Below, piece after piece: positions 1,443-52,800 of a stretch of DNA of 64,000 nt. The translations under genes were made by a program, and so were the position numbers. This DNA is from Candidatus Omnitrophota bacterium (GTDB lineage: Bacteria > Omnitrophota > Gorgyraeia > Zapsychrales > Fredricksoniimonadaceae). Each line of letters opens with the position of its first letter. Positions within the stretch are counted from its first letter, which is position 1. The stretch is from assembly GCA_013285735.1 (NCBI GenBank), contig JABDGZ010000002.1, positions 81,621 to 145,620 on the forward strand, in the 5' to 3' direction. Below the pieces are notes generated by a model. That model was given only the letters and a program-made list of their open reading frames with translations. It ran no database searches and had not been told where the DNA came from.

Positions 1443-1480
1443 ATAAAAAACCCTCTGCGACCTTTTCGGGTCACAGAGGG
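1443..1480 (-). terminator. Rho-independent terminator downstream of csp
   Basis: On the minus strand, ccctctgtgaccc-gaaaa-gggtcgcagaggg (12-bp stem, one mismatch) is followed by TTTTTTAT, 25 nt after the csp stop. Confidence 0.8.
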
Positions 1481-1504
1481 TTTGGAAATACAAGAACTTG
1501 ATTC

Positions 1505-1705
1505 TTATATTTTTACAACGTTTTGAGCTTGTTCACCCTTAGGGCCGTTGACGATTTCGAACTCAACATCTTGTCCTTCGCCAAGTGATCTGTACCCTTC
1601 ACCTTGAATGGCAGAGTGATGCACAAATACGTCTTTGCCGTTTTCAGGAGTAATGAATCCAAAACCTTTTTGATCGTTGAACCACTTTACTTTACCTTTA
1701 ACCAT
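1505..1705 (-). CDS. csp: Cold-shock protein, CspA family (66 aa)
   Basis: [33 protein letters not shown] contains the RNP1 (KGFGFI) and RNP2 (VFVHH) motifs. Confidence 0.95.
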
Positions 1706-3844: not shown

Positions 3845-6800
3845 CTATCTAATATCTGGCGCTTTAAGTCCCACCAGAGGCCAAACATTGTCAACCGGTA
3901 TCATCTTAAGAACCTCCGGCCAAAGACTATCAACACCATCATGCCTGACGCGCGCCATCAAAGCAGCATCCACATTCATTTCAACACCATGACCTTCACG
4001 ACGAACTTTCCAATGCATACCGCTGGCGGTTAAATCAATACCCCCATAAACCTCAGCGAATGCAGCTTTATCTCCTCTTTTTAATTTAAGGGCATCGCCT
4101 ACCTTCCCTCTAAGCCGTTCCCTATATTCCTCACTAACATAATAATCCGAAGCATCCCTTCCAGCTAAATCAAGCATAACTCTTACTATCTGCTCAGGGT
4201 CCTCACTTTGATTTATCAAATTTTCGATCAATGCACTTTCCGCTTGTGATAAAGCTATTCGATCATGCACAGTATCCGATCCTCTCGTTAAACGCCTTAC
4301 TGCCTCAGATGCCCTACTATAATTAGCCAAGGCCCCTAACGCAGTCGTAAATGTAGCCGCTAATTGTTTATCAACATCATCAACCGTCATCGACCTATCG
4401 CTCTCTTTGCTTGTTGATAATCTTTTTTTGGATCGTACAATATATATGGCACGACCCTTTCTTACTAAATACATCTCCACCTTCATTACCCTGTCCTTAG
4501 CAACTGCGGTGGTAACGCGTGCTTTACCTACTAAAGGCAAAGCCTTAATCTCAGAACGTTTTTCTAAAACCTCTTTCACTAAAGGTCTCAATATCGCAAT
4601 ATTTTTCTCATTTAGTCCTATCCAATATACTGCCGATTGATTTCCTTTAAATCTTCTTACTCTCTTATTTACATCTGCATAAATCTTACCTAAAAACTCT
4701 CTACTGATCCCGTCTTTGTCACTTAACGGTAATTCTAAAGCTACTTCATGAATCAATTGTAACAATCTTATATTAAAGGGATAAAGGTAGATAAGCCCAT
4801 TAACCATATCTTCAGGCTGAGTTCCTAATTGAACAAGTAAATCTCTTTTGGGCTTTAAATTATCTTCGACACTTGCAGCTGCTATCCCAGGCGCTCGCGT
4901 AATAATTTGCATCAAACTACTTTTATCTATTCCTAATATTCTTTGCCAATCTTCTATTTTCTGTTCAGATATCCCCATGGCGACTGTTGAAGAATTAGCT
5001 CTTTTACCTGCCCTCATCGCCGTGTCGGGTAAAGTTTTCAAAATTAACGTATACAACTCCTCTATGAATGCTTTTTGACAAAATACGATCCCTGGGGATG
5101 AATTCTCTAAATCAACAAATGCTGTAGAAGTAAGAATAACCGGAATACCTTTACTTACAACCTCTTTGGCAAAACCTAAACCCTCGTCTATTTTTGGATT
5201 ATCTTCTTCTGTAGGAGGAAATTTATTGTCTGTAATAACCAACCCGAAATTATATTGCGGATCATTTAATTTACTCGTAGCATCAGCTCTGTTTGTAGCA
5301 TATTCAACTTTCAATTTTAATTTAGGATATAACTTTCTTATCCTGCGTAACATAAATACAGCATCTGGATCGTCCTCTACGATTAAGACCTCCATAGTCC
5401 TTTCTAAGCTTTTTTGATACTGATGAAGTCTACTGTATGCCTTTAAAAAGGAATGATACACCCCACCCTTGTCGAACGCTTCATAAAAATTCCCCGCAAA
5501 TTGCCAAACACCATCTCTCCAATTCCATGTATGTAATCTGTAATCCCGCTTTGAATATAAAAGAATTTGTTCTGATTGGGCTATTTCCTTTTTGATCAAA
5601 TCTACCCGTATAATTTTTGCCTGTTCAGGATCAATCTTTGCCAGGAAAACAAAGACAAACTTTCCATTCCCAAGAATCCCTGCTTTGTCCTCCTCATCCT
5701 TCATGCCTTCCAAAGCTTCCGGGGTGATTTGAGTCACTTGAAATCCCATCTTTTCATGAAACTCATCTGCAGTTGATGGGTCATTCCCAACGATCAAGAC
5801 ACGATACTTTCTATTTTCTTCTTTTTCTTCAGTAGATATCATTGCCTCATCAATAAAAAATGAATTACCCTCTAATTCATCACCAAATTCATGGACACTA
5901 TGCAATCTTTGAGAAAGATCAGAAAAGTATGCCGGATCTGACGCTCGCCTTTCATCCCAGGATAAATCAGCAATATGCTCTGTCATTCCTTCTTGGTTCA
6001 TCCCGCTTTTAAGGCTGGAATAAATTCGAATCAATGCGCTTTCTGCGGCATTGGATATTTCGTCCGGTCCATCTTTTCCACGTATAGCTGGTTCACTGGC
6101 GACGGCCAAAAAAGTAACCAACCAATCAGGAACCCGATGACGCGTATACCAGTTACCCAAAATATTTATTTGATCTACTTGAACTGTAGCTGGCCATAAA
6201 ATATTATTTTTAATCCATGCTGATAAAGCTTCTGCTGATTGATAACGCTCTGCCTTTGGCGCACTCACTAACCCGTAATGCTCTGCAATACTCCATGTAA
6301 ACCCATACATTCGCTTATAAATCTCACGCTCTTTTTGTATTCTAAATCCTTTAGGAAATTCTATCTGTGCCAATGCTCGAGGATCGTTCTTTGCAAGCAT
6401 TAAAAGATAGGTGGGAAGGTGATAAATAAAAGATAACCGTTCAACAAATAGACGATCTTCTGATTCAAAATTAGAAATGGAAGAATCTTGGGAAAAGGCA
6501 GTGGGAACTGTAAGACTAATAGGCCATTGGGCATCACCATGATACCTGAACGAGAAACACTTTGGCATGGTAGCTGTTTTTTCTACAGTAACTTCTGACA
6601 CATCTCTCCAAGCAATAGCATAAAACGGTTTATTTTGTGGAATTAGTGAACTACTGATCGTGGCTATCGTACTTAACACTCCGACCAAAAGATTAGACAA
6701 CGCAGATTCGGGGGAATTAAGTTTTTGAGCGCTTTGACTATAAAGCCTTCTCAATATTGTCCGCAACCTCTCTATCCGTTGCTCCAACTCTTTTGAAGAA

Positions 6801-8128
6801 AAAAATATATACCCCTTTTTTAACTCTGCAATGATACGTTGAGCCTCTTCTACACCAACTTCTTTTGAAATATTGGAAGAAAGCCTATCTAAAACTTCGT
6901 TAATAATCGGAGGATTTTCCTCTGCTGCAGCTGTCATCGACGCATCAACCTGAATAGGCGTAGTATTTGCAAACGTTAAAAAATTTATTATCCTGTTTTC
7001 CCAATGATTTTTGGCCATATCTTTAAGCATCGCAATAGCACCTTTAAGACGATCAGTGATTACAGCTAGCCTCCCAGGAGACGCTGCTCCTATCTCTACC
7101 CCTCCTGAAAAATATTTCCTCGGCATCGTTTCACCATTGCTTGCATTGATATCTTCTTTAATGTAATTAAATACACCCTTCTTGTACGCTTTCAGGTATT
7201 GCTCATATATTCTTTCTTTAACTGTTGGATCATTTAAGTTAATTCCCTTAACCTTGTCCTTATTCGCATACACTTGATTCAGCAATGCTTCCTTAAGACT
7301 TCTTTTATACCAACTTGCTAAAATAATGGAGTTAAAGATTTGTCGCAGATTAGCAAAGTTCTGGCCTTGATTAACTTCTTTTTCGAGTTCGGGGAGGATG
7401 ATTTGTTTGATGATATTGGAAGCAATAGAATGTGAAGTGTGTTGGCCTTGGTGTTTGGTTAATGCGAGATAATCTTCTTCTAACATCACCTTTAAATGAC
7501 TGTCTACCACAAATGCTGTTTGATTGTGTTCGAATACTTCTGCCCGGTCGGCCATGATCCATACTTTATTAAACGTATTTACCGGTACCTGGGTCGTTCC
7601 GTACATCTCTTGAGCTTTGGAATACACTTTATCCCAAAAGGTTTTACCTAATTTCTTCTCAGGATAGATCAAGGATGCGGTGATTTGTTTGAGTATGTAA
7701 TCTTGTTCCAAAAGGTCTCGCCCCATATCTGTCTGACCTAAGGCTTCAGGGATTATTCTGTTCTTTTCATACGGGGATAAATTAACCCACACATCTTTAT
7801 CTGGGATGGCTAAAGAGGCTAGAAAATACTTAATAAGCTTTTCACCTTCTTTTTTAAGAGGCTCTCCACTCATCTTGTCCTGGCCTACATCTACGATGAA
7901 ATCAAACAAGAAGGGATTGTCTTTGTGTACGGTCAAACCTTTGATGATAACCGGCTCATAGCTGGGGCTTAGATTGACCATAACGCCGGGAGCTGGCAAG
8001 ATAAGCCCACCCTCTGCCGAGTAAGCAACAGGGCAAATAGCAATATCCCCGGCAAAGGCAGAATAATTTCCTACCTCACCTGTGACTAAAAAACACAGAA
8101 GAGTTAATATAGATACCAATCTTCGCAT
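3845..8128 (-). CDS. Large Sec-signal protein P1 (1427 aa): shared N-module, receiver-domain core, GGIDL C-module
   Basis: Signal peptide MRRLVSILTLLCFLVTGEVGNYSAFA. Residues ~45-343 (nt ~7100..8000) are paralogous to 18321..21221 and 46886..53200, up to PRKYFSGG. REC-like segment at ~5050..5395 (MEVLIVEDDPDAVFMLRR...GLVITDNKFP...PVILTST...QKAF). The last 68 aa (3845..4051) begin YGGIDL. Confidence 0.8.
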   Translation of the reverse strand: MRRLVSILTLLCFLVTGEVGNYSAFAGDIAICPVAYSAEGGLILPAPGVMVNLSPSYEPVIIKGLTVHKDNPFLFDFIVDVGQDKMSGEPLKKEGEKLIKYFLASLAIPDKDVWVNLSPYEKNRIIPEALGQTDMGRDLLEQDYILKQITASLIYPEKKLGKTFWDKVYSKAQEMYGTTQVPVNTFNKVWIMADRAEVFEHNQTAFVVDSHLKVMLEEDYLALTKHQGQHTSHSIASNIIKQIILPELEKEVNQGQNFANLRQIFNSIILASWYKRSLKEALLNQVYANKDKVKGINLNDPTVKERIYEQYLKAYKKGVFNYIKEDINASNGETMPRKYFSGGVEIGAASPGRLAVITDRLKGAIAMLKDMAKNHWENRIINFLTFANTTPIQVDASMTAAAEENPPIINEVLDRLSSNISKEVGVEEAQRIIAELKKGYIFFSSKELEQRIERLRTILRRLYSQSAQKLNSPESALSNLLVGVLSTIATISSSLIPQNKPFYAIAWRDVSEVTVEKTATMPKCFSFRYHGDAQWPISLTVPTAFSQDSSISNFESEDRLFVERLSFIYHLPTYLLMLAKNDPRALAQIEFPKGFRIQKEREIYKRMYGFTWSIAEHYGLVSAPKAERYQSAEALSAWIKNNILWPATVQVDQINILGNWYTRHRVPDWLVTFLAVASEPAIRGKDGPDEISNAAESALIRIYSSLKSGMNQEGMTEHIADLSWDERRASDPAYFSDLSQRLHSVHEFGDELEGNSFFIDEAMISTEEKEENRKYRVLIVGNDPSTADEFHEKMGFQVTQITPEALEGMKDEEDKAGILGNGKFVFVFLAKIDPEQAKIIRVDLIKKEIAQSEQILLYSKRDYRLHTWNWRDGVWQFAGNFYEAFDKGGVYHSFLKAYSRLHQYQKSLERTMEVLIVEDDPDAVFMLRRIRKLYPKLKLKVEYATNRADATSKLNDPQYNFGLVITDNKFPPTEEDNPKIDEGLGFAKEVVSKGIPVILTSTAFVDLENSSPGIVFCQKAFIEELYTLILKTLPDTAMRAGKRANSSTVAMGISEQKIEDWQRILGIDKSSLMQIITRAPGIAAASVEDNLKPKRDLLVQLGTQPEDMVNGLIYLYPFNIRLLQLIHEVALELPLSDKDGISREFLGKIYADVNKRVRRFKGNQSAVYWIGLNEKNIAILRPLVKEVLEKRSEIKALPLVGKARVTTAVAKDRVMKVEMYLVRKGRAIYIVRSKKRLSTSKESDRSMTVDDVDKQLAATFTTALGALANYSRASEAVRRLTRGSDTVHDRIALSQAESALIENLINQSEDPEQIVRVMLDLAGRDASDYYVSEEYRERLRGKVGDALKLKRGDKAAFAEVYGGIDLTASGMHWKVRREGHGVEMNVDAALMARVRHDGVDSLWPEVLKMIPVDNVWPLVGLKAPDIR

Positions 8129-8208: not shown

Positions 8209-9141
8209 TTAACTAAATGTGGCGAGTAATTCTTTATTGGTGGGGATTTGTTGGAGTTTTTTAACCAGCGTTTGCGCAGCTTCGATAGGACTAAACCCGG
8301 CCAAACTGCGCCTTAATCTTTCAATCTGTTGATATTCCTTCGCCTCAAAAAGTAATTCCTGTTTGCGAGTAGCACTTTTAGAAATATCAATGGCTGGAAA
8401 AATACGATGATTGGCAATTTCTCTTGATAGAACAACTTCCATATTACCTGTTCCCTTAAATTCCTCAAAAATGACTTCATCCATACGGCTCCCGGTCTCA
8501 ATCAAAACCGTAGCTAAAATGGAAAGCGACCCGCCATTTTCAATTTTGCGCGCGGCGCCAAAAATACGGCGCGGCACCTCAAGGGCCCGGGCATCAACCC
8601 CTCCGGAAATGGTACGTCCGCTGGAACGCGTTTGCGCGTTATGCACACGTGCCAGCCTCGTCAAAGAGTCAATCACGATCATCACATTACCGCCTGCCGC
8701 GACCTCAACAAAGGCCTTCTGCATTAATTTATCTGCGATTTCAATATGGTTTTCATAACTTTGATCTGAAGAAGAATAATGAATCTCACCCGGAATCGTT
8801 CTCTTGAATTCCGTCACTTCTTCAGGCCTCTCATCAATGAGCAGGCAGTAAAGTTTAATATCCGGTGTCCCTTTGGCAACAGCCTGACAAATGTGTTTTA
8901 AAAAAGTAGTTTTGCCTGAGCCAGGCGGCGCCACAATAAGCCCGCGCTGTCCCATGCCGATGGGACATATCAAATCCATGGCACGCATGGTCAATTCCTG
9001 ACTTCCTGCTTCCAGGCGAATACGGGGAGAAGGATCAATCGGAATACCTGCCAAGAATTTCTTTTCAGATTCATCGATACGCCTCGACGGTGCTGGACGG
9101 GCGTGTTGATGCGGCTGACGGTAGGAATTATAGGGACGCAT
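8209..9141 (-). CDS. rho: Rho-like RecA-type ATPase lacking the N-terminal RNA-binding domain (310 aa)
   Basis: Colinear with the Rho C-terminal domain: PIGMGQRGLIVAPPGSGKTT (Walker A), LLIDERPEEVTEF, DSLTRLARVHN, GGVDARALEVPRRIFGAARK, EEFKGTGNMEVVLSREIA..RIFPAIDI.KS.TRK. Only ~45 aa precede this region. An in-frame stop lies 15 nt upstream of the ATG. Confidence 0.8.
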   Translation of the reverse strand: MRPYNSYRQPHQHARPAPSRRIDESEKKFLAGIPIDPSPRIRLEAGSQELTMRAMDLICPIGMGQRGLIVAPPGSGKTTFLKHICQAVAKGTPDIKLYCLLIDERPEEVTEFKRTIPGEIHYSSSDQSYENHIEIADKLMQKAFVEVAAGGNVMIVIDSLTRLARVHNAQTRSSGRTISGGVDARALEVPRRIFGAARKIENGGSLSILATVLIETGSRMDEVIFEEFKGTGNMEVVLSREIANHRIFPAIDISKSATRKQELLFEAKEYQQIERLRRSLAGFSPIEAAQTLVKKLQQIPTNKELLATFS

Positions 9142-9149
9142 AATTATAA

Positions 9150-10154
9150 CTAATCTTTATAGCGCAAAAGCTGCCCGCGAGGTGGGTCACAGACCCAAAT
9201 ATTATTTTGATCATCGCTGACAACACAATGAGATTTTATATCCGCTTGGGCTTTGCCCAACAAAGACAATTGGCCTTGGGCTGATACACCTAAAACTGAA
9301 AGGGTGGCATTCTTGGAACTGGTAAAATACAAGTGTGCAAGCTTAGGGTTATAACTTATCACATCAGGCCCAGGATCAGTTGTTAAATTACTTATTTCTT
9401 TATTACCATGGTTTAAATCAAAAACCAAGGCACGGCCCTCAGCACAACTAACAAAAAGAAATCCTTTTTGTTCATCCAAAGCATCCCCACGCGATTTTGT
9501 ACATTCATTAGGCCACGTACCAATAACAATATGAGATTTTAGATCAATCATCGCGGCATTGGCTCCTAGATTCGTATAGGCATGCCCTCGGAGATGATCG
9601 ATCATCAAAGATTCTGGACCTTTGGGAACAGGAATAAGCACCGTCGCTTTCAGCATTGGATGTTCTCCACCTGTAAACCTAAAAACCTCGATCTGTTTAT
9701 TATGCGGCTCAGTGACCCAAACTTCATGATTGACACCGATATAGCGGACATAATCAGCATCTCCTGCTAAATCCGCGTTAGCCACTATTGATCCTGTTTT
9801 AAGATCCACCGCATCAAGTTCCTTGTTTCCATGATCCGCAACAAATATAAAAGCTTCCCCCTCATCCGCTGAGGAAATGCCAACCTCATGCCCCTTTTGC
9901 ATTTCAGCGCTCGAACTAAATCCACCGATACTCGACATTGCAAAATTCACCGGATCGATCAAATATAATTTTCCTGTGTGCCCCGCAGGGACTAACACTT
10001 TATGCAACTCTGAAGAATATACCAAATCATCAAAACCAATGCCCCCTTCACCACCAGGAATGGCAACAACCGTGGATTGTAAAGATGAGTCAGAAGATTG
10101 AGCGAAAACTGGATTAGCTATTGCTGTGAATATAAAAATTAAAAAGAATAACAT
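9150..10154 (-). CDS. Secreted beta-propeller repeat protein (334 aa), function unknown
   Basis: Signal peptide MLFFLIFIFTAIANPVFAQ. Repeated ~40-aa units with hydrophobic strands and D/G turns, resembling YVTN or lactonase-type propellers. Confidence 0.5.
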   Translation of the reverse strand: MLFFLIFIFTAIANPVFAQSSDSSLQSTVVAIPGGEGGIGFDDLVYSSELHKVLVPAGHTGKLYLIDPVNFAMSSIGGFSSSAEMQKGHEVGISSADEGEAFIFVADHGNKELDAVDLKTGSIVANADLAGDADYVRYIGVNHEVWVTEPHNKQIEVFRFTGGEHPMLKATVLIPVPKGPESLMIDHLRGHAYTNLGANAAMIDLKSHIVIGTWPNECTKSRGDALDEQKGFLFVSCAEGRALVFDLNHGNKEISNLTTDPGPDVISYNPKLAHLYFTSSKNATLSVLGVSAQGQLSLLGKAQADIKSHCVVSDDQNNIWVCDPPRGQLLRYKD

Positions 10155-10205: not shown

Positions 10206-10892
10206 CTAAAGTAGGTTAAACCTATACCCGATACCAGGTTCATTGATGATACGCTTAGGGCTTGACGGATTGTCTTCGATTTTCTGACGCAGGTGATTTA
10301 AATAGACCCGTACAGAATTAGCTTTCTCTTCGTTTTCCGTTCCCCAAACTTCCCTTAAAATTTGCCGCATCGTTAAAACCCGCCCAGCATTTTTAATCAA
10401 CGATGTTAATAATCCGTATTCAATGGCAGTCAACTTAAGCGCTTTACTATGCAACAACACGGTACGGGTATTAAACTCAACATGTAATCCCGCATTATCA
10501 AAAACCTCATTTATAAGCCCTGGCGTCGTCTTTCGCCGTAACACGGCTGCGAGCCGTGCGGTCAACTCAGAAGCAGAAAATGGCTTGGTGATATAGTCGT
10601 CTGCGCCGCTTTCCAAACATTTGACCTTTATTTCTTCTTGCCCTCGGACAGAAACCATAATGACAGCCACGTCGCTAAATTCCCTAATGCGCACAAGCAC
10701 ATCAAAGCCTTCCATATCCGGCAAGCCCATGTCAAGCAGCACCGCTTGGGGTTTTTTGTAGACGAGCTCGGCTAATCCTTTTTCACCGCTAGCAGCACTA
10801 ACGACTTCATAGCCGGCATGAGTCAAGATCACTCCCAACATCTTCTGGATCTGCGGCTCATCATCAATGACAAGAACAATTCCCTTGGACAT
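10206..10892 (-). CDS. kdpE: OmpR-family response regulator KdpE
   Basis: REC domain (VLVIDDEPQI...LLDMGLPDMEG...KP) plus a winged-helix output domain (...VYLNHLRQKIE...GIGYRF). Located immediately downstream of kdpD. Confidence 0.9.
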   Translation of the reverse strand: MSKGIVLVIDDEPQIQKMLGVILTHAGYEVVSAASGEKGLAELVYKKPQAVLLDMGLPDMEGFDVLVRIREFSDVAVIMVSVRGQEEIKVKCLESGADDYITKPFSASELTARLAAVLRRKTTPGLINEVFDNAGLHVEFNTRTVLLHSKALKLTAIEYGLLTSLIKNAGRVLTMRQILREVWGTENEEKANSVRVYLNHLRQKIEDNPSSPKRIINEPGIGYRFNLL

Positions 10893-10900
10893 ATTAGAAT

Positions 10901-13543
10901 CTATTCTTTTTCTGCCATTGGTAAGGTTATCGTTACCATGAATCCTTTAGGAGACAAATTTTCTGCTTCCACATCACCTTCATTCAATTGCACAAAGCGA
11001 CGGGCGATGGAAAGACCTAAACCCAAACCGCCTTTTTTAGTTTTTGCTCCTCGATAAAATTTATCAAAGATCTTGGCCAACGTTTCTTTCGGGATACCTT
11101 CTCCCTGATCGATCACACTGATCCTGATTTTTTGATCCATGATACGGACATTAATATCGATCTCTTCGCCTTCAGGGCCATGCACTAAAGCGTTATGGAT
11201 AATATTCTTCAACGATTGTGTGATCATATAAAAATCCGCGTTCACGTACAACGGGCCTTGAGGACAATCCAGGTGAATGCGTTTTTCATCTCCCTGAGGA
11301 GCAACCTGCTTGAGTGCTTGGTTAATGATATCCTTGACTTCGCACCAGGCAAAATTAGGGCTCAAATTTCCTGTATCTAATTTTGTCAAATCCAGCACCG
11401 CGTCAACCCCGCTGGTCAAACGCAAACAAGCTAAACGGCATTCTTCCAAAAGCTCCATGGCATCTTTAGGCCATTGATGAAATAAAACCAAGGCATCCAG
11501 ATAACCAGAAATAATCGTCAACGGCGTCTTTAATTCATGCGATAAATTATCGAGCAAGGCACTCTGTAAATTTTGCGTGTCTTCCTTCATTTTGGCTTCA
11601 CGCGACATTTTTAACAATTGGTCTTTTTCTAACATCACTGTCATGAGCGCTGTGAATGATTCTAATAATGTCCGTTGAGCCAGATCCAAAGGTTTTTCAT
11701 CTGAAAGATTAATGACCAACACAGCCCTGACCTGTCCCGACGACATTAATGGCAAATACATTAAAGGCTGCTGCGACAAGGTATCAGAAAAACGTCCTGC
11801 GGCTTTCTTGTTAGCAACCACCCATTGGACCAAACCTTTTTGATTATCATTCATTTCTATAGAGTCCCCCAGAGGATTCTCAAAAAGGGGATGTTCATTT
11901 TCATCAACCATCAAAACACTGCTGTTGCCCGGCACCAGCAAATTGATTTGTTGGGTGGCTACCCGCATCGCTTGTGAAATATCCGTACTGAGAGCCAAGG
12001 CACGGGTTAATTCGTACAAGGATTCCGAACGCAACCGTTGTTTCTGTTCAACTTCTTTTTGACGACGTAATTTAGAAGTGACAAACCCCATCATCAGGGC
12101 AGTTATAAAAAACATCCCTAATAAGCCCATATCGTAACTACTTTTAAAACCAAAAGTATATTGCGGGGGTATAAATAAGAAATCCCATGCCAAAGCACTT
12201 AATGCTGCCAGCATAAAGGCAGCACCTCTTCCTAAAAAAACCCCGCTTAAAACAACAGTCAGCAAATACATCAGCCCTGTATGGTGGTATCCAGCCCATT
12301 GATACAGAAATAAGTTCACGATAGTAGCTATGGCGAACATCAAAATACTTAATCCATATTCATGGGGCCTGAGTTTTGATAAAGATTCTTTCGGCTTATC
12401 CGGAAAACTCTTATCTGCCGACGATATACGCACCATGTGCACATCTATCTGCCCGCTTAAAGATACTAATCGATCCGCCAATGTCGGAATTCCCAGGAAT
12501 CGCTGCCAATTTTTCTCAACAGATTTTCCAACAATGATTTGAGTGACATTTTCTTTATGCGCCACCGCAATAATCACCTGAGCTAAATCATCCCCCACCT
12601 GATGAATGATCTCTGCCCCCAGCTGACGGGCAAGGCTCAGATTCTTCATCAAACGTTCTTTATGTTCCTCGGAAAGTGATGCAGATCCTTCCACGTGCAG
12701 GGCGATCCATGAAGCATCCAGCATGCCTGCCCAGCGACGGGTCATACGGATCAACGACTCTGAAAATGGCGTTATCCCGACTGCAACTAAAATACGTTCA
12801 CCGCTTCGGGTTGGACCTGAAAGACCTTTAGCTAACATAAGAGACCGCAAATTCCTGTTCACATGGGCGGTGGTCAAACGCAGGGCCATCTCTCTTAAAG
12901 CTGTTAAATTTTCCGTTTTAAAAAAATTAGTAGTCGCGGCTTGGGCCTGGGCTGGGACGTACACCTTGCCTTCTGCGAGGCGTTGATGCAAGGCTTGGGG
13001 AGATAAATCAACCAAGGTTATTTCAGAGGCTTCATCAAGAATGGTATCAGGAACTGTTTCTCCGACGACCACACGGGTCACCGCTAAAATATCTTCCCGG
13101 CGGCTGTCCACATGCTGTACATTAAGGGTGGTGAAAACATCAATATCTGCAGAAAGTAATTCTAAAACATCCTGGTAACGTTTAGGATGCCGGCTGCCGG
13201 GGGCATTGGTATGGGCGAGTTCATCAACTAAAACTAACTGGGGACGGCGTTTGAGGATTTCATCAATATCCATTTCCTCAAGGGCTATGCCGCGATAATC
13301 AACTTTTTTAAGAGGAACCAACTCCAAGCCTTCCAACAGGGCTTGGGTTTCAGTACGGCCATGGGTGCAGACGACACCTACCAACACCCTAAAGCCTTCG
13401 TTCTGACGCTGGCGTGCCTCCTGGAGCATGGCATAGGTCTTACCAACACCAGGTGCCATACCAAAAAAAATCTTCAGCTTGCCGCGGTGATTGTCTTCGG
13501 CCTTTACTCTTGCGAGAATTGCATCCGGATCGGGTCTTTCCAT
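10901..13543 (-). CDS. kdpD: Sensor histidine kinase KdpD (880 aa)
   Basis: N-terminal KdpD domain with GMAPGVGKTY, a USP-like region, four TM helices, a GAF-like region, an H-box (LSHELKTPLT) and an HATPase domain (GLGLSIARRF). Confidence 0.92.
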   Translation of the reverse strand: MERPDPDAILARVKAEDNHRGKLKIFFGMAPGVGKTYAMLQEARQRQNEGFRVLVGVVCTHGRTETQALLEGLELVPLKKVDYRGIALEEMDIDEILKRRPQLVLVDELAHTNAPGSRHPKRYQDVLELLSADIDVFTTLNVQHVDSRREDILAVTRVVVGETVPDTILDEASEITLVDLSPQALHQRLAEGKVYVPAQAQAATTNFFKTENLTALREMALRLTTAHVNRNLRSLMLAKGLSGPTRSGERILVAVGITPFSESLIRMTRRWAGMLDASWIALHVEGSASLSEEHKERLMKNLSLARQLGAEIIHQVGDDLAQVIIAVAHKENVTQIIVGKSVEKNWQRFLGIPTLADRLVSLSGQIDVHMVRISSADKSFPDKPKESLSKLRPHEYGLSILMFAIATIVNLFLYQWAGYHHTGLMYLLTVVLSGVFLGRGAAFMLAALSALAWDFLFIPPQYTFGFKSSYDMGLLGMFFITALMMGFVTSKLRRQKEVEQKQRLRSESLYELTRALALSTDISQAMRVATQQINLLVPGNSSVLMVDENEHPLFENPLGDSIEMNDNQKGLVQWVVANKKAAGRFSDTLSQQPLMYLPLMSSGQVRAVLVINLSDEKPLDLAQRTLLESFTALMTVMLEKDQLLKMSREAKMKEDTQNLQSALLDNLSHELKTPLTIISGYLDALVLFHQWPKDAMELLEECRLACLRLTSGVDAVLDLTKLDTGNLSPNFAWCEVKDIINQALKQVAPQGDEKRIHLDCPQGPLYVNADFYMITQSLKNIIHNALVHGPEGEEIDINVRIMDQKIRISVIDQGEGIPKETLAKIFDKFYRGAKTKKGGLGLGLSIARRFVQLNEGDVEAENLSPKGFMVTITLPMAEKE

Positions 13544-13578
13544 GCCTTCTATCTTACTTCATTTGAAGACATCTGCCA

Positions 13579-14157
13579 TTATTTTTTATATTGATCTAAG
13601 GCGAGGTTAACTTGCAAAACATTCACTACTGGTTCTCCAAGAAATCCTAAAAATCGACCTTGGGTGTTTTGATTGACAATTTGTTTGACCACATCCGTTG
13701 TTAATCCACGCACACGTGCAACACGGACTAGTTGATACTGTGCGGCTGCTAAGCTGATATGCGGGTCTAGACCACTGCCTGAGGAAGTTACTAAATCTAC
13801 AGGGATTGGATCATTGTTACCTGGATCAGCAGCTTTTAAAGCAGCAACTCTCCCTTTCACCTCATCTAATAAAGCAGGATTTGAAGGGCCTAAATTTGAA
13901 CCTGAAGAAGCTGAAGCATTGTAAGCAGGACTCGTCGCTGAAATTCTGCTCCAGAAGTATTTCGGATCATCGAAGTTTTGGCCGATCAATGATGAACCTA
14001 AAATCTTGCCATCTCCGGAAACGATCAAGCTGCCTTCAGCCTGCTTATGGAATAATGTCTGAGCAACGCCGGTCACAAAAAGCGGGTAAAGAACTCCGGT
14101 GAGTGCCGATAATAAAACAAACGAAACGATGGCGGGTCTGATTTGTGCGAGTAACAT
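13579..14157 (-). CDS. kdpC: Potassium-transporting ATPase subunit KdpC
   Basis: 192 aa with a single N-terminal TM helix. Motifs ...[25 protein letters not shown]...[13 protein letters not shown].... Confidence 0.92.
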
Positions 14158-14169
14158 TGTTATCTCCTT

Positions 14170-16248
14170 TTATACTAAATGTAAAGCTACTAAGATCATG
14201 TCGATCAATTTGATTCCGATAAACGGAGTAATGATACCTCCAACGCCATAAATCAATAAATTATCACGCAAAAGACGTGTAGCCGCCATTGGTCTATACG
14301 GAACACCAAACAAGGATAAAGGAATAAGAAAGATAATGATCAACGCATTAAAAATAACCGCAGAAAGAATTGCACTTTGCGGTGTGGCTAAATGCATAAT
14401 ATTTAATGCCCCTAGCGCTGGATACGTCCCTACAAATGCCGCCGGAATAATCGCAAAATACTTGGAAACGTCATTAGCAATACTGAAGGTCGTCAAAGAA
14501 CCTCTTGTGATCAAAAGCTGCTTGCCGATCTTGACCACCTCAATTAATTTGGTGGGATTAGAATCCAAATCCACCATGTTCCCTGCTTCCTTGGCTGCTT
14601 GTGTTCCTGTATTCATGGCAACAGCCACATCTGCTTGAGCCAAGGCAGGAGCATCATTTGTCCCGTCGCCGGTCATAGCCACCAGCCGGCCGCCGGTTTG
14701 CATATCACGGATCAATTTTAATTTTGTTTCAGGTGTGGCCTGTGCTAGAAAATCATCCATCCCTGCTTCCGCAGCAATGGCCGCGGCTGTTAAAGGATTA
14801 TCCCCTGTGATCATAATCGTTTTAATTCCCATACGACGTAATTCTGCAAAACGCTCCTTGATGCCGCCTTTAACAATATCTTTTAATTGAATGACCCCTA
14901 GAACATTCTTATCTTCTGCCACCACCAAAGGTGTGCCGCCGCTCTTGGAAATTGTCTCAATCGATGACTTAAGATCGTCGGGAAAAAGACCGCCGGCTTT
15001 TCTAACATAACCTTCGATAGCATCAACCGAGCCTTTTCTAATTTGACGGTTTCCTGCCAAATCTACCCCGCTCATTCTGGTTTGCGCAGTAAACGGGATA
15101 AACTTTGCTTCCAATTCCTTGGTCTGCCTCTCTCTAATGCCATATTTTTCTTTGGCTAAGACAACGATGCTGCGGCCTTCAGGTGTTTCATCAGAAAGGG
15201 AAGATAATTGAGCAGCGTCAGCCAGGGTCTCAACACTGACTCCTTTTGTCGGAATAAAAGCCACTGCCTGCCTGTTCCCCAAGGTGATCGTACCTGTTTT
15301 ATCAAGTAACAATACATCAACATCCCCTGCAGCTTCAACAGCGCGTCCCGAGGTGGCAATGACATTAGCCTGGATCATACGGTCCATGCCGGCAATTCCA
15401 ATAGCCGGCAATAAACCGCCGATCGTCGTTGGAATAAGGCAAACCAGCAAGGCAACTAGAGCTGTAACAGTAATGACAGTTCCTTTTCCCGCGGCCGCAA
15501 CGCTAAAAATAGAAAACGGTAAAAGGGTCACCACGACTAAAAGAAAAATGATCGTAAAAACTACCAGTAAAATGCTAAGTGCTATTTCATTAGGCGTTTT
15601 TTGACGACGAGCACCTTCAACCATGGCGATCATATGGTCCAGGAATGTTTCTCCTGGGTTAGCTGAAATGCGAACAACAAGCCAATCAGAAAGGACGCGC
15701 GTTCCGCCGGTGACAGCAGAACGGTCCCCGCCGCTTTCACGGATAACCGGAGCACTTTCCCCTGTAATAGCACTTTCATCGACAGAGGCAACTCCTTCAA
15801 CGACCTCGCCATCCATAGGGATATAATCACCGTGTTCAACAAAAACAACGTCACCCTTGCGCAAGGTTGTCGCTGAAACAGTTTCATAATTGGAACCATA
15901 AACAGGCTTTGACATTTTTTTAGCTGGCGTATCCTTACGAGCTTTACGCAAACTCTCCGCCTGAGCTTTACCGCGTCCTTCAGCCATGCTTTCCGCAAAA
16001 TTAGCGAACACGATCGTAAACCACAGCCATAATGAAATGGCCAGGATAAAACCAGCACCTGTCTCACCATGGCCTACGAGAGCTTGAAAATACAAGCCTG
16101 TCGTCAATACGCTGCCGACCAAAACTACAAACATCACAGGATTTTTGATCTGATGCCTGGGATCTAGTTTTTGAAATGAGCCAATAATGGCTGGCCCTAA
16201 TATCGAAGGCTCAAATAGCGATGTTACTTTATTATGTGTCTTTTTCAT
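14170..16248 (-). CDS. kdpB: Potassium-transporting P-type ATPase subunit KdpB
   Basis: DKTGTIT phosphorylation motif and [21 protein letters not shown] hinge. 692 aa. Confidence 0.95.
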
Positions 16249-17990
16249 ATATTCCTCATCATTAAATGTTCAACAATGGGCCCTAAAGCCAACGCTGGAA
16301 AGAATACCAAGGCTCCTATGACTAAAACCACCATAACCAAAAAGAAAACAAACAACGGCGTATGTGTCGGTAAGGTTCCTTGGGTTGTAGGTATAATTTT
16401 CTTAGCTGATAAAGACCCTGCAATAGCCAGCATGGGGATTGCCAGCCAATAGCGGCCAAAAAACATCGAAATCGCTGTAGCTACATTATAAAAAACCGTG
16501 TTCGCACTGATACCACCAAAGGCACTCCCGTTATTGCCTGCTGCGGATGAAAACGCATAAAGAATTTCACTGAAACCATGCGGGCCAGGATTAGAAATCC
16601 CTGCTTTTCCTGCAACAGTAAGTACGGCAATAGCTGTCGGTAACAAAATAAACATATGCGGAATGACAGCAACCAGGGAAGCCATTTTCATTTCAAAGAC
16701 CTCAATTTTCTTGCCTAAATATTCCGGTGTACGGCCGATCATAAGGCCGGCTATAAAAACTGCCACAATGATAAATCCAATCATGCCGTACAGCCCGCAG
16801 CCGACACCGCCAAAATCAACTTCTCCTATTTGTATAAGCCACATGGGTATCATGCCGGACAAAGGCATAAAAGAGTCATGCATGCAATTGACCGATCCAT
16901 TGGCAATAGCTGTTGTCGTAACAGCCCAAATGGCTGAATTAGCAATACCAAAACGAGCCTCTTTACCTTCCATATTCCCACCAGGTTGGAAAGCAGTAGC
17001 ACCTTGGTCCACCCCTATTTTAGTCAACAAAGGATTACCTTGTTGTTCGATCTGAATACCAAACCAAAGACAGGGGAGAAAAATAATCAACATGGCTGCT
17101 AAAATTGCCCAGCCTTGGCGACGGTCTTTGACCATATAACCAAAGGTATAGCACAATCCAATGGGGATTAGAAAAATGGCCAGCATTTCTAAGAAATTAG
17201 ATAACGGTGTTGGATTTTCAAACGGATGAGCAGAGTTGACATTATAAAATCCGCCACCGTTGCTGCCTAATTGCTTAATAGATATTTGGGAAGCCACAGG
17301 TCCTAAAGCAATGTCCTGTTCAGTAACCGGCTTTCCATTACTGTCCTTCTCCGTTTGTAGATATGTTGCCGCGGCACTTTTACTAAAAGTCTGAGGTATT
17401 CCTTGAGAAACAAAAAGAACGGCAAAAATAATTGATAAAGGCAGCAAGATATAAAGAACTGTCCTGACCATATCCACCCAAAAGTTACCGATGGTGTTCA
17501 TCTGCTTTTGAACAAATCCCCTGGTTAATGCGATCAAGATAGCCATCCCTGTTGCCGCGGAAACAAAGTTCTGAACGACCAAAGCCACCATTTGAGTCAA
17601 ATAAGACATGGTGCTTTCCCCGCCATAGCCTTGCCAATTGGTATTGGAGGCGAAACTTATCGCTGTATTAAACGACGAGTCCGGAGATACTGCGGGCATG
17701 GCCATGGGATTTAAAGGTAGGCTGGCTTGAAAGCGCTGGAAACCATAAACGACCAAAGCTCCTAAAATATTAAATAAGATCATGGCAAAGGCATAGGTTT
17801 TCCAGGACATACCTTCTTCTGGTTTTACACCGCAAAGGCGATAAAACAATCTTTCTACTGGAGCAAACCACACATTTAAACCCGCGGGGCTTCCCTCATA
17901 TATACGGGCCATGTAGGCACCAAACGGTTTCACCGTTAAGAGTACTACTACAATAAAAAAAGCAGCTTGAATAAAGTCATTGAGGCTCAT
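16245..17990 (-). CDS. kdpA: Potassium-transporting ATPase subunit KdpA
   Basis: 581-aa polytopic membrane protein with selectivity-filter-like motifs (NTNWQ.Y.GE, GSNGGG). It overlaps the kdpB start by 4 nt. Confidence 0.93.
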
Positions 17991-46885: not shown

Positions 46886-49800
46886 TTAAATTGTCCCTGC
46901 AGTGATTTGGTTATCCGTTACGCCAAGAAAGTTTCTCAGATTGACTGTCTGTATATCAATAATAAAAGGCCTAAAGCCCGGGGCGTTTTGAAGTTTCTGC
47001 AACATGGCTTGGTCGATATGAAATTTAATACCTTCCCCAGCATTTTGGGTCTGTAAATTTTTATTAGTAAGAGATAGATCGATACCACCAGTGCTTGCTT
47101 TATCTTCACTAAACTGCGCCACATCTCCGCCATTGGCTACTCGAACAAGGTCATCTTGGGTAATCACCTCTTTTTCCAAGTATACCTCAAAAACTCTTTT
47201 AATTTCATTCTTTTCTTCATCAGTTAAACTCTTGCCGTCTTTAGTTACTTCAAATCTATCTTCAACCCCTGTTTGATAGGTGTTAACAGGAGAAACTCTA
47301 ATATTTAATTTAAATCTGTCTGAAAGGATGCGTGAAACAACATATAACAAGCCATTGCGGTCTGCGGTCTGTAGATTAAATACACTCGCCTCTTGACCAA
47401 TATCATCTTCAAAATTAACCTCGGTTCTTATTTTTTGAGTACCTGATGATCTTTTAAAATCTTGCCTGGCTCCGTTAAGTTCAAAAATTTCATCAACAGT
47501 TACTGTTCCGTTGATGACTGAATCTACAAGAATAGGGAGCAAAGGGACAAGCATCCGTTCCCAAGGGAAATCATCCTTTTGGGACCTTTCTTGAGAAAAC
47601 CTTCTATCTTTCAACAGTGCATCAAGTTGGGCAATTTGTATCTGATTCTTTTGACTTTCTCCTTGAAGTTTTGTGAGTAGCGTTTCAGCGATATGCCTGG
47701 AGTCTTGACGCCCAATGAACCATCCCCTCATTTGATCAAAAACAATCCCTGCACGGGATGTATTAATCTGGGCACCTAAAATATTAAATCCCATCGCAGC
47801 TAAAGCACCTGCAGCTTTATACATGATTCCCTGCTCATCTTTATTAGTACCAACTAAAAAATTTAACATACGTCCATAAGGAGTGGAGACTTCTAAAGCC
47901 ACGGCATGCGATTCCAAAAGGTCCTTTGAGATATCATGCATAAAAACAAATAAAATAAATTGCTCTATCAAAAAATTCTTGTCTGTGAAACGAAAATAAA
48001 AAGAGTCGTACATTTTTGTAAATTCATCCCAAAGAGATTCATGAGTGTCAGGGTCTTCAATAAAAGCTTTTGATAGCCAGGTAGTATCTTCTACATATTT
48101 AGGATCAACACCATCTATACTGCTAATTAATTTGGGAAGTTGACGTTGAATGATGTCCTTATTGAAATGCTCCCTTGTTTCATCCTGTACTCTCTTTGCT
48201 TCATCAATAGCTCCCTGCTTCCATTCGCCCCTCAAACGGTCTTGCTCTAATGGTGATTGCCGCAGATATTCTGATAATGCCACAAACAAATCCGTGGTCA
48301 TTTGATATTTTCCATTTTCAAATGTCCACTGATAGGGATTAGAAGGATCATACGGATCAACAGAATGAGCATCTGCCAGGGTCAAAAGATAAAACGTATT
48401 CAATAAATCCTGATTTAAAACACCCTCAGCTAATTTAAGAGTATCCACCAAATCAGTGAAGAAAAACTGACTCCTATTATTGGCAGCGACATATCGTGTA
48501 TTATTAATCCTCATCCCCCATTCCTGATGATACCAAACCAGCCACTTAACTAGAGGTAAAATGGCGCTCGCATCCGGGAATTGACTTAAAAAGCGCGGCG
48601 TCATTTTAATAGAGCCTGCTATTGGATGCGGTGTGTTCCAACTAGCTCCCCCAACTTCCTTTTCAGCATCATGGCATAAAATGGCGAACCTTAACGCAGC
48701 CAATGAGTTGCCATCACTTGATACATTGTTATACACCCCTTGGGCTTCATGTAATCTGGGATCGCCAAACATAATATTCTCAAGATAATACAAAAGATAA
48801 ATCGAGTGCATGGGGACAGAAAACCTATGAACAGGAGCTTCGAAATGATACCTCAACGTTTCAAATTCAGGTAAAAACTTACCTAATAGCCGCACCTGAT
48901 ACATCTTTAATAGTAGTAAAGAAATCTTTTTTTGTGTCTTCATAAATGCATAGAAAGCTTCCTTCATAGCCTCTGTTGGTTCTTCCAAAGCAGTTGTCTG
49001 TGCAGCAATGGCACGAAGGACTCTATCTGAAATGGTCGCCTCTTTGTCAGCTGTCAACTGAAAAACCTTGACCATAAGCTCAGGTCTTTCTTGAAAAGTC
49101 TCTTCTATTCTTTCCTGTGAAATTTCCTCTGGAAAATCTATGACACGTACAGCTTCGCCTTTGCCCTTAATCTTTAAATGAAATTGATTGGCTAAATCAA
49201 TATAAAAGCCTTGGTCAAGCACTTTAATTTCAAACCCATCCCCATCGGTAATCTGATGGACTTCCGAATAAGAGGCTGGCAGTTCTTTTTCCATAACCGT
49301 CTGAAAGACCCTGGTCAAAACTTTATACACGAGTTCTGAATTTTGATAATATTTTTCATACTCTTTTTCCACGTCCCCACTAACTGCAAAATGTTCAATA
49401 ACAGATATCCCTTGTTTGTAGGAATTAAAATTACCCCTCAGAAATGTATCAATTTCTTGTTTGTATTTAATCAATTCATCCTTTTCCTCTGGAGTGATCA
49501 ACTCGTGATCCAACAATCCATCAATTAATGGACTCACATCATCTTCACTCCATACCCCTTCGGGATGTAAACCGCTAATAGGGTAATCCTTTAAGACTCC
49601 TGATTCAAACAAGTCTTTTAACGCAAACCACATCGCATTCCCACCGTGAATATCCAAAGGTGATTCCATGTACGTTCTTTGATCAGTAAAGCTAACTGGA
49701 ACAAATTGTTGAACAGTAAATGGACCTCCACCTCTGATTCGGTAAAGATCATTAACCCGTTTAAAAATTGTATTGACCACTCTCTGGAACTCTGGAATTT

Positions 49801-52800
49801 CCTCTTTCACAACCATCCTCGATGGACTCGGCAATTCTTCTATATTTATCAATTGAATGTCCCCAACGGTCAATTCTTTCGTCCGTTCTTCTATGTAATC
49901 TTGAAGGGTTCTTGAAAGAGCATCAAAATCTTGATGGACATATCTATCGCGAAGTTTAATACCTATATCAATCTGTGCAATAATGGACATAGCATCCCCG
50001 ATAGCAGCTCCTGATCTCCCCATAGGATTGGCTTGAAAAAACCACCATTCATATTCGGCCAAAGCTTTCTTTCTTTTTTCAATATCTTCTTCTTTATTAT
50101 GTATCAGTACCCATAAATTCCCAAGATGTGCCATAATATCTGGTATCAATTCTGCAGAGGGATGAATAATTGTAAAAACACCTTCAAGTTCAGTAATCTT
50201 TTGATCGTATGTTTTAGTTTCACCATCTTTTCCAATAAAATCATACGTCTTTGAAAATCCTGCTCTTTTTTCATCTGAACTCATCCCGCTAAAAAGCCTT
50301 TGATCAATCTTCTCATGTAATACATCAAAGTATGTTCCTTCCCCATAATGATTTACAACCGTCACATAGAAACGATACCCCTCCCCATTTAATCGTTCAC
50401 GATTTGTTAAAGCCTCAAACACATTTTCTTCACTTTCATTAGTTGCTCTTTGTTCGTCCGCAATATTAATCCGCTCGGCCAAAACTTCTTCATACGTTGC
50501 CAGGTGATCTTCCGCTGTTATCGGCGACGAAGACTGCTGATTTTTTGCGGCCCCTCGTAAAACAACTCCTGCCATCCCTTTTGTATAAATTGGACCGGTT
50601 CCTATTATATTCTCTACTTGGGCAAGCATGGAAAGATCAGGGCCAAAATATTCATCAAGATCAATTTTATAAATTTTTATAAACCTCATCATTCCTAAAT
50701 TCTCTAAAGCTATTCTAGGATTGATCAAAGAACGTTTTTCTCGAACTATTTTTCCAATTTCACTTAATTTTTGAATAAATATCTTTTGAAAATGCTCTAC
50801 TGTAGTATGTATAGGTTGAGGTCGATTCATCCATTTTTCAACTACCCCACGAATTGACTCTTCTTGGTCAGGAGTCAATTGCGCACCCAATTCACATTGT
50901 AATTTAACAATGCGCATAATTGTTGCAACACTATCCAAATCATTAATGTTTCCAGAAATGCGAAGTACTTTTTGAATTAAATCATCGAAGGCTTCTACAT
51001 GACCAAACAACCGGCGCTTTGCATTAAAAGCAATTTGTGTAAGCGAGGCACGGGGCACGTCAAAAAAGAACCCAGAGTTTTTATCCACCAGCGCTCTTTT
51101 AAAATACTCAGTTCGACGTCCTTCTGTCTTTGCGTAAGGCCCTTTATACTGTATTACACGCCCATCTTTCCAACGTATTTCTTTATTAAAATCATAAAAA
51201 TCTTCCACTGTCACAGGCCTACCATCCACCTCTATGCCCTCTGCGGCAAGCGCATCAGCCAATTTTCTCAAAGACGCCTGTGCTTTACCAACAATCTCCG
51301 GACTCGTTTTATCCTTTGACAACATAGATTGGAAATACTCTTCATCCGTTAAAGGGATAGCAATCGCTATGTCAAAATCTTTGCTTTTTTTTATTTTAGT
51401 CCGTTCATTCCACGGAGTTCCACCAATAAACACAACATCATCAAGTTTCTTTTCCTCGAGCCATTCCATAAGACCCAAAGTATCTGTATCAGATATTTCT
51501 ATCGGCCCGTACTGCTCACGGAATTCAAACCATCTGGTTTTTATAGAAAAAATGGCTGTCCCGATTCTTTCCTTTATTTCCCTCATATCCCTTTCTTTAA
51601 GATAATCATATGCGGGAATCTCTCTTTGAATCAGCAACAATTCTGCGATGTCTTCTTCTCTACCCAATTTCTCTAGAATATCAAGAGCTCTGGCTTTGGT
51701 CGAAATATCCGTATCCCGATCTTTCACGGCAGTCAACAATATTCCATTAGCACGGCTGTCATTAATTCTTTCCGCAGCCTCTACAGAGGCCATTTGCACT
51801 GATTGATACGGACTTGTGGCACCCACCAAAAAAATCCTTAAAAACCTTAACCGATCAGACCGTTCAGATAATATGTGGATGACCCCTACGGCCTTACTTT
51901 CTTCACTTTTCTCAACCATTTCTCTTAATTCTTGAAAAAATATTTCAGGCTTATCCTCATCGATTAGCTTATTGATTTCTACTCTTAAACTATCAAAAGT
52001 ACCTGTGCCACCATCTGCAACGGCTGCTGCATCAACATTTTGTTCATCTGTACTTGTCATGGACACATCAGCCCTCACCCTTAATTCGCTCTTTGGTTGA
52101 TTATTGAAAAAAGTACCTACTTGTGCTGGACCAATAGTCCTGGTGCTCACCCTTAGCAAAAGACCACCTGAAAAATATTTCCTGGGAATAATTTGTTGGT
52201 TCAAAGGATCTACTTCTTCCTTAATATAGTTGTAAACACCTTTCTTAAAAGCCCGTAAATACTGTTGATAAATTTTTTCCTTCTCCTGGGGATCATCAAT
52301 ATTGACGCCAGCTACCTTATTTTTATTTACATAAACTTGTGCCAAAATGCTGTCCTTAATCTTATTCTTGTACCATGTGGCAAGGATTAATGAGTCATAT
52401 ACCTGACGAAGCCTGGCAAAATTCTTATTTTCATTAACTTCTGTTGTCAGTTCGGGGATGACGATTTCACGGACTATTTGAGAGCCTAGGGCGTTGATAC
52501 TATTCTTGTTTGTGATGAGAGATTGCTCCGCTGCGCTCGCAGTGACGTTATGCTTTTCAAGCGATAAATAATCCTGCTCAAGCATGACCTTGAGTTTGCT
52601 TTCTACTATATAGGCTGTTCCTGCTTTCGCATTTTCATAAATAACCGCTTGCTCTGGAATGATCCAGACTTTATTAAATGTATTAACTGGGACATTGGTC
52701 GTACCAAACTTTTTTTGGGCCTCTTCATATACTCTTTTCCAAAATTTCTTACCAATCTCTTCCTCAGGATAAACCAAGGAGGCTGTAATCTGTTTAAGGA

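Follow-up and report, generated by a model that had tools for sequence, protein, structure and literature searches.

A minus-strand gene in the 64,000-nt stretch of Omnitrophota DNA analyzed here (the window) codes for a protein that keeps the connector and the complete motor of transcription termination factor Rho and lacks its N-terminal domain (NTD) (Table 1). The protein is best regarded as belonging to a conserved family of Rho paralogs from which the primary RNA-binding site is absent and whose members are at present annotated as Rho without further qualification. We propose, with a probability of roughly one half, that members of this family are accessory Rho-type RNA translocase rings that load without rut recognition, beside canonical Rho. 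In Rho, the NTD consists of a helix bundle and an OB fold and supplies rut-site binding.

Table 1. Features of the NTD-less rho gene and its upstream neighbor (positions in the window)
Feature	Position	Strand	Evidence
CDS, NTD-less Rho paralog, 310 aa, ATG start	8209..9141	-	ORF listing; NF006886; PDB Rho matches; AF2/Foldseek
In-frame TAA stop, 5 codons 5' of the rho ATG	9157..9159	-	Direct sequence reading
N-terminal tail, residues 1-23 (MRPYNSYRQPHQHARPAPSRRID), predicted disordered, Arg/His/Pro-rich, in place of the NTD	9073..9141	-	pLDDT; tail statistics
Connector, residues 24-62 (KFLAGIPIDPSPRIRLE...PIGMGQRG), homologous to E. coli Rho ~130-170	8956..9072	-	Rho-model and E. coli Rho alignments
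Walker A / P-loop APPGSGKTT, residues 71-79	8905..8931	-	K184 and T185 equivalents invariant
Catalytic Glu/Arg motif LLIDERPEEV, residues 100-109 (E. coli E211, R212)	8815..8844	-	Ortholog alignment
Walker B and Arg valve VMIVIDSLTRLAR, residues 153-165 (E. coli D265, R269)	8647..8685	-	Ortholog alignment
Q-loop, secondary RNA-binding site NAQTRSSGRTISGG, residues 168-181	8599..8640	-	Ortholog alignment
R-loop, secondary RNA-binding site ETGSRMD, residues 215-221	8479..8499	-	Ortholog alignment
Arginine finger region KSATRKQE, residues 255-262 (E. coli R366)	8356..8379	-	Ortholog alignment
Upstream gene, probable secreted beta-propeller protein	9150..10154	-	ORF listing; weak NHL and lactonase matches

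The first-pass annotation had described a 310-aa ORF colinear with the Rho motor domain, with Walker A, Q-loop and R-loop present and the frame closed 5' of the ATG; all of this was borne out, the closing codon being the TAA of Table 1. It had also placed the start of homology near residue 130 of E. coli Rho, correctly, and counted ~45 residues ahead of that point, which was too many: only ~23–32 residues precede the Rho-homologous region, and the rest of the quoted string belongs to the connector between NTD and CTD, aligned to E. coli residues 130–150.

NCBIfam model NF006886 (Rho) matched residues 26–308 of the window protein over model positions 130–412 of 413 only (E = 6e-115). The score of 384.3 is above the cut-off of this model (315), hence the annotation of the protein as Rho; the score against TIGR00767 is below cut-off (360.1 versus 509.45). 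In the alignment to Rho profiles that had been suggested earlier, the ATPase region was matched, ATP-synt_ab (PF00006, E = 4.6e-20) being the only Pfam match in the protein, and both NTD modules, the Rho_N helix bundle (PF07498) and the Rho_RNA_bind OB fold (PF07497, with its RNP1 GFGF motif), gave no Pfam match. The best PDB matches were Rho chains (298 bits, E = 4e-88), and E. coli Rho (1pv4) aligned over 137–412 with 280 bits, while FliI/F1/V1-type ATPases reached at most 67 bits. Identity as a FliI or type III secretion ATPase or as an F1/V1 subunit was considered and rejected, since the respective models gave E values of 1e-25 or weaker against 6e-115 for Rho, those for FliI, type III secretion and F1 ATPases lying some 90 orders of magnitude behind. 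An AF2 monomer model calculated from a 52-sequence alignment (pLDDT 88.9) was matched by Foldseek to Rho C-terminal domains with a TMq of 0.88 and an rmsd of 1.2–1.8 Å; the E. coli Rho chains matched include RNA-bound and NusG-bound states, the Rho chain of 6DUQ among them.

A search of 5.8 billion proteins returned at least 120 ortholog clusters, with 74–94% identity and lengths of 274–358 aa. In all 120 clusters listed, PF00006 is the sole Rho-related domain; these orthologs share the 'MRPYNS...' start and the length of the window protein, and the clusters that bear names are Candidatus Omnitrophica or Omnitrophota. At least 118 further NTD-less clusters form the group of protein P0121, with MAGs labelled Omnitrophica, Elusimicrobiota and Verrucomicrobiae. 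Eight proteins from a search of 1.84 billion cluster representatives (P0121, P0124, P0128, P0161, P0169, P0192, P0201 and P0262), each from a separate 50%-identity cluster, are alike: a basic disordered tail is fused straight to the Rho motor, and alignment to the Rho model begins at ~128–133. Overall, the architecture was found in more than 230 clusters, mostly labelled Omnitrophota, and the survey of NTD-less rho genes in relatives that the first-pass annotation had proposed now comprises these clusters and ~88 loci with neighborhoods. We looked for orthologs whose gene at this locus has an intact NTD; the 120 listed include none. P0467, a candidate for an OB-fold-bearing intermediate, turned out to be a canonical Rho with an internal assembly duplication. 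A scan of GTDB genomes, in which generic Rho motifs dominated, yielded two family members only.

The equivalents of E. coli K184, T185, E211, R212, D265, S266, R269, T323, G337 and R353 show no variation among the 120 orthologs listed, and those of R366 and E369 are found in 119, with a gap in the remaining one. Two substitutions in the Q-loop (K283R and T286S) and one in the R-loop (K326R, with T323 kept) are conservative and are themselves invariant across these orthologs. Connector residues F29, P34, P37, R40, L43 and E44 are invariant or nearly so (alignment A1). At the OB-fold positions F64, R66 and Y80 of E. coli Rho, every one of the 120 orthologs has a gap. When ~80 NTD-less proteins were compared with ~90 canonical Rho proteins, only six positions conserved in the canonical form were changed clade-wide, all of them conservatively (A192C, T231S, V246L, A273V, K298R and F300I). 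With the catalytic and channel residues intact, there is no sign of lost ATPase activity or lost RNA translocation. These data show that the window family is a Rho connector and motor under purifying selection.

Ahead of the connector, the orthologs keep an M-R-P-Y/F-N start, which is followed by a variable low-complexity stretch and then by the invariant connector 'KFLAGTPIDPSPRIRLE'. In the AF2 model of the window protein, residues 1–19 have pLDDT values below 50. Tails of the window group have a median length of 22 aa, a net charge of +4 and 17.5% Arg, and those of the P0121 group a median length of 38 aa and a net charge of +7; in both groups Arg accounts for 17–19% of residues, with Pro, Asn, Gln, Ser and His also prominent. 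Certain orthologs have just ~8 residues ahead of the connector, one of them Arg. Judging from the predicted disorder, the basic composition and a length that varies down to ~8 residues, the tail is a disordered basic appendage rather than a cryptic domain.

A neighbor-joining tree built on the motor domain unites the window group with the P0121 group in 91 of 100 bootstrap replicates, and the clade enlarged by P0124 and P0201 is recovered in 80 of 100. It spans Omnitrophota and some MAGs labelled Elusimicrobiota or Verrucomicrobiae. Canonical Omnitrophota Rho lies outside the clade and groups with canonical Rho of other phyla, in a tree whose deeper nodes are not resolved; P0248, a Type-4-like protein, is placed near the NTD-less clade with weak support. 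Canonical full-length Rho is widespread in Omnitrophota (at least 78% identity across at least 120 clusters; loci L056 and L066 carry the gene), and its locus has the order polA-coaE-rho-rpmE-prfA-prmC-murA-rpsP-trmD-rplS-rnhB. Comparison with 77 canonical-rho loci revealed no flanking gene common to short and canonical rho, and the short gene was never seen at the coaE-rho-prfA position in the loci compared. Across the phylum the short form is 60–70% identical and thus diverges faster than canonical Rho; between close relatives it is 86–89% identical, about as conserved as KdpD and KdpE.

The family motif MRAMDLICPIGMGQRG, written as a family-specific DNA pattern, was used to scan metagenome contigs from JGI and gave 80 loci. 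Contig Ga0247727_10007740 (L138; 20.3 kb, GC content uniformly 56–60%) carries both forms of rho, 7 kb apart. Its canonical gene, which encodes a 420-aa protein with Rho_N, Rho_RNA_bind and ATPase domains that is 77–78% identical to canonical Omnitrophota Rho, sits in a coaE-rho-prfA-...-rnhB-guaA cluster. The NTD-less gene (329 aa) follows guaA after 1 nt, and its product is 70% identical to the window protein; the motor domains of the two L138 proteins are 49% identical to each other. In L146, a second contig from the same sample, guaA also adjoins a short rho. Since both genes are on one contig, NTD-less Rho is an additional gene in this genome, not a replacement. On the present analysis, the window's own genome, too, quite probably has a canonical rho elsewhere; the coexistence was seen in a genome with 58% GC whose short Rho is 70% identical to the window protein, and the window lineage has 44% GC. 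A specialized Rho paralog, one of the readings offered in the first-pass annotation, is hence the favored one: the family has its own clade, it is encoded off the coaE-rho-prfA locus, and it coexists with canonical Rho in the genome of L138, for which its status as a paralog is shown.

Compared with canonical Rho of the E. coli type, the connector and the whole motor of the window protein are colinear (~50% identity to E. coli Rho), and Walker A and B, E211, R212, R269, R366, the Q-loop and the R-loop are all present. Unlike canonical Rho, the window protein lacks residues 1–129, that is, the helix bundle and the OB-fold primary site, and it belongs to a separate clade outside the coaE-rho-prfA locus. 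Second Rho copies have been described under the name 'Group B', for which D'Heygere 2013, together with Moreira et al. 2024 (PMC11347177), is reportedly the source. In the PVC group, a second rho is a frequent finding (PMC11347177). Like the Group B / Type 4 and subtype 2d second copies described there, the window protein is N-terminally shortened and keeps its catalytic residues, and the short gene, like theirs, is an extra rho beside a canonical one (here, in L138). However, Group B / Type 4 proteins, as characterized there, drop Rho_N only and keep the OB domain, whereas the window protein is without the OB domain too (PMC11347177). The window protein thus lacks two features by which canonical Rho is defined, as well as the one that defines Type 4. 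The same survey uses 'Rho-like' for proteins with one of the three Rho domains, which are set aside as non-functional and given in the supplement only; the window protein, with the ATPase domain only, falls under this definition. Omnitrophota are outside the dataset of that survey (PMC11347177).

Another known short Rho paralog is the 360-aa 'short form' of NCBIfam model NF041509 (paralog_Rho2). The window protein corresponds to positions 76–359 of this model, leaving positions 1–75 unmatched, and scores 327.8 against a cut-off of 628. Membership in Rho2 was rejected, as the window protein and eight of eight other NTD-less representatives fall below the cut-off. Finally, an Arg-rich, low-complexity disordered N-terminal segment is a feature shared with the atypical Rho proteins of Bacteroides, Mycobacterium and Micrococcus, to which the P0121 group is also alike in that its segment is Asn/Gln-rich; in the atypical proteins, as reviewed in PMC11347177, the segment is added to an intact NTD, whereas in the window protein the tail replaces the NTD. 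Our literature search found no work linking Omnitrophota with Rho and none on NTD-less Rho, and a 2025 review of Rho is silent on such forms.

If the window's genome holds a canonical rho elsewhere, the NTD-less protein would be an accessory paralog. It would form a hexameric ring, hydrolyze ATP and move 5' to 3' on RNA by means of the central-channel loops. Because the OB fold is missing, such a ring would be unable to select C-rich rut sites; its recruitment to RNA would be non-specific, through the six basic tails and/or through contacts of NusG-KOW or RNA polymerase with the motor domain. Its role may be that of a sequence-independent terminator or of an RNA-DNA helicase, alongside rut-dependent canonical Rho. 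There are precedents for both ways of loading: binding of NusG-KOW to the C-terminal domain of Rho brings about ring closure, even when the RNA has no C residues (PMC7819879, citing Lawson 2018), and the basic disordered regions of atypical Rho have been proposed to be non-specific RNA binders (PMC11347177). Given these precedents, a rut-independent loader is the most economical model. Several observations weigh against it. Removal of the first 27 residues of E. coli Rho is stated to abolish RNA binding (PMC11347177), so that a ring without the primary binding site may load poorly alone; tails of ~8 residues with a single Arg would be a weak RNA tether; and the coexistence found in L138 comes from a lineage other than the window's, of higher GC content.

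The main rival to the accessory ring is a modulatory subunit that would enter mixed hexamers with canonical Rho; these would have fewer primary RNA sites, and their rut dependence or termination efficiency would be tuned in this way. In L138, both genes are part of one gene cluster. The catalytic residues at the subunit interface, including the Arg finger and the Arg valve, are identical to those of canonical Rho, and hetero-hexamers have been proposed for the 'Group B' second copies (PMC11347177). Still, mixed hexamers seem to us possible rather than probable: the two motor domains of L138 share just 49% identity, the NTD-less clade has long been separate as a lineage, and most loci place the short rho at a distance from any canonical rho.

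It is also conceivable, though rather unlikely, that the window lineage has lost canonical rho and that the NTD-less protein is its only Rho-type terminator. There is no canonical rho inside the 64-kb window, and comparison of accession blocks for the 6 short-Rho and 20 canonical clusters listed with NCBI accessions revealed no shared assembly and so tied no canonical Rho to a short-Rho assembly. Matching of MAG accessions between short and canonical Rho among the matches listed likewise produced no link, at low power. The conservation of short Rho between close relatives, similar to that of KdpD/KdpE, would fit an only copy as well. However, L138 has both forms, canonical Rho is widespread and highly conserved in Omnitrophota, and the short rho is off the canonical locus and diverges faster (60–70%) than the canonical gene (at least 78%); the accession coincidence test, moreover, drew on the best 120 matches per search and has little power. 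If the protein were the sole Rho, factor-dependent termination would proceed without any rut-recognition domain, with loading via short basic tails and NusG or RNA polymerase.

The genes next to the short rho bear on another reading, a non-terminator motor. The product of the upstream gene has a signal-peptide-like N terminus and matches NHL and lactonase propellers below the Pfam cut-offs. Its distance of 8 nt from the rho ATG is as had been reported, and its identity as a beta-propeller is plausible, not proven; it is likely co-transcribed with rho. Our neighbor counts cover 88 loci. Of the 54 loci with at least 1.5 kb of sequence upstream of the short rho, 26 have a propeller homolog as the immediately preceding gene, and such a homolog is missing there in distant members of the family; KdpE and KdpD are upstream in 27 and 24 of the same 54. 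The gene for a DUF347 membrane protein is directly upstream in nine loci, in one of which (L083) it overlaps the short rho by 8 nt, and an ABC-F ATPase is encoded directly downstream in 15 of 45 loci with at least 1.5 kb of downstream sequence. Six loci (L003, L085, L087, L088, L089 and L138) have unrelated contexts, housekeeping ones included. The contexts available for P0124 and P0201 are short. No family-wide conserved neighbor was present across the 88 loci, and the neighborhoods of the short rho are sub-lineage syntenies.

The tight adjacency to propeller and DUF347 genes, together with the loss of the domain that defines the choice of terminator sites, could suggest that the ring now serves another purpose, such as general RNA remodelling or decay or a role linked to its neighbors (Kdp, the secreted propeller or DUF347). 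This non-terminator motor, which the first-pass annotation had listed, appears improbable. Such neighbors are limited to sub-lineages, as the six unrelated loci show, and they are envelope proteins with no plausible tie to a cytoplasmic RNA motor. The loops that contact RNA (Q-loop and R-loop) are strictly conserved, and with every residue for RNA translocation kept, the sequences argue against a motor that has left RNA translocation behind.

RNA binding could also be supplied in trans, by a separate NTD or by a nearby cold-shock-domain (CSD) protein. The OB fold of Rho is CSD-like, and a 66-aa CSD gene (window 1505..1705, minus strand) is found 3' of the short rho in three loci (the window, L082 and L083), with a product that is 100% identical among the three. 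To look for an NTD, we used an HMM built from 120 Omnitrophota Rho NTDs, which detected positive controls with E values of 1e-42 to 1e-76. A six-frame search with this HMM found no NTD-like coding sequence in the 64-kb window, and there was none within 10 kb (less at contig ends) of six other short rho genes. Among the 87 other short-rho loci, the only Rho-NTD-like ORF was the canonical rho of L138; hence the earlier statement that no split NTD is encoded next door stands, extended to the whole window and to these loci. One or two unrelated genes intervene between rho and the CSD gene, which has a strong terminator of its own, and no CSD gene is near the short rho in the six loci with unrelated contexts. 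It was rejected as a partner, its linkage being restricted to one sub-lineage. With neither an NTD-like ORF nor a family-wide conserved neighbor at 88 loci, the trans-acting RNA-binding partner suggested earlier is disfavored, and a split Rho is very unlikely.

That a frameshift, a mis-assembly or a decaying gene copy made the truncated protein can practically be dismissed, because the same architecture and start recur in over 230 clusters that are independent of one another and come from assemblies of NCBI, JGI, ENA and Logan, the catalytic residues are invariant, an in-frame stop lies 5' of the ATG and the upstream DNA is filled by a different gene; with the 120 listed orthologs of the same length and the six-frame HMM search empty, the frameshift test was negative and the absence of the NTD is genuine.

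How Rho finds its targets is debated, between capture of rut sites by the N-terminal OB folds and riding on RNA polymerase with NusG. NTD-less proteins bear the name 'transcription termination factor Rho' and pass the NCBI cut-off for Rho, so that surveys of Rho by name or by ATPase domain miscount. The family described here is a natural case of separation of function, in which the complete motor and the channel loops are kept and the primary binding domain is dropped. It lets one ask what a Rho ring does without rut recognition, and why cells keep both kinds.

Upstream of the short rho, on the same strand, lies a complete Kdp potassium-uptake cluster, and this arrangement is found in about half of the loci carrying the closest orthologs of the window protein. 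At nine loci the short rho is directly preceded by a gene for a DUF347 membrane protein; in one of them, L083, this gene and the start of rho share 8 nt. No DUF347 gene is present in the window.

On the other side of the short rho, a 1427-aa ORF with an N terminus resembling a signal peptide gave no significant match in a Pfam search. Its GC content is 38-40%, compared with ~44% in neighboring genes, and it is missing from the syntenic locus L083, where rho is followed directly by the ABC-F gene. The ORF looks like a lineage-specific insertion. The 66-aa cold-shock-domain protein is 100% identical among the window and loci L082, L083, and L084. A 2104-aa ORF is also present in the window.

Features in the window and in compared loci
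Feature	Locus	Coordinates	Strand	Remark
Intrinsic terminator	window	1448..1483	-	15-bp stem; after cold-shock-domain gene
Cold-shock-domain protein gene	window	1505..1705	-	66 aa
1427-aa ORF	window	3845..8128	-	flanked by short rho and ABC-F gene
115-aa ORF	window	8411..8758	+	antisense to rho
Kdp cluster	window	10206..17990	-	KdpA, KdpB, KdpC, KdpD, KdpE
2104-aa ORF	window	46886..53200	-	
DUF347 membrane-protein gene	L083	9262..10008		
DUF347 membrane-protein gene	L085	9060..9851		
NTD-less rho	L138	3..992	-	
guaA	L138	994..2532	-	

Two candidates were rejected. Apparent homologs of the 115-aa antisense ORF occur opposite rho in about 50 loci; this ORF is not a gene but a by-product of the conserved rho reading frame on the other strand. 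P0467 (566 aa, ENA) is a canonical Rho, not an NTD-less relative, with an internal tandem duplication of ~150 motor-domain residues that is probably an assembly artefact; it ranks among NTD-less matches solely because its motor domain is doubled.

Both forms of rho are found on the metagenomic contig L138. The NTD-less gene comes last in a long housekeeping cluster whose genes, the canonical rho among them, all lie on one strand. The TTG start codon of the NTD-less gene is separated by only 1 nt from the stop codon of guaA. Given this shared cluster and the close spacing, the canonical and NTD-less rho genes may be co-transcribed in this organism.
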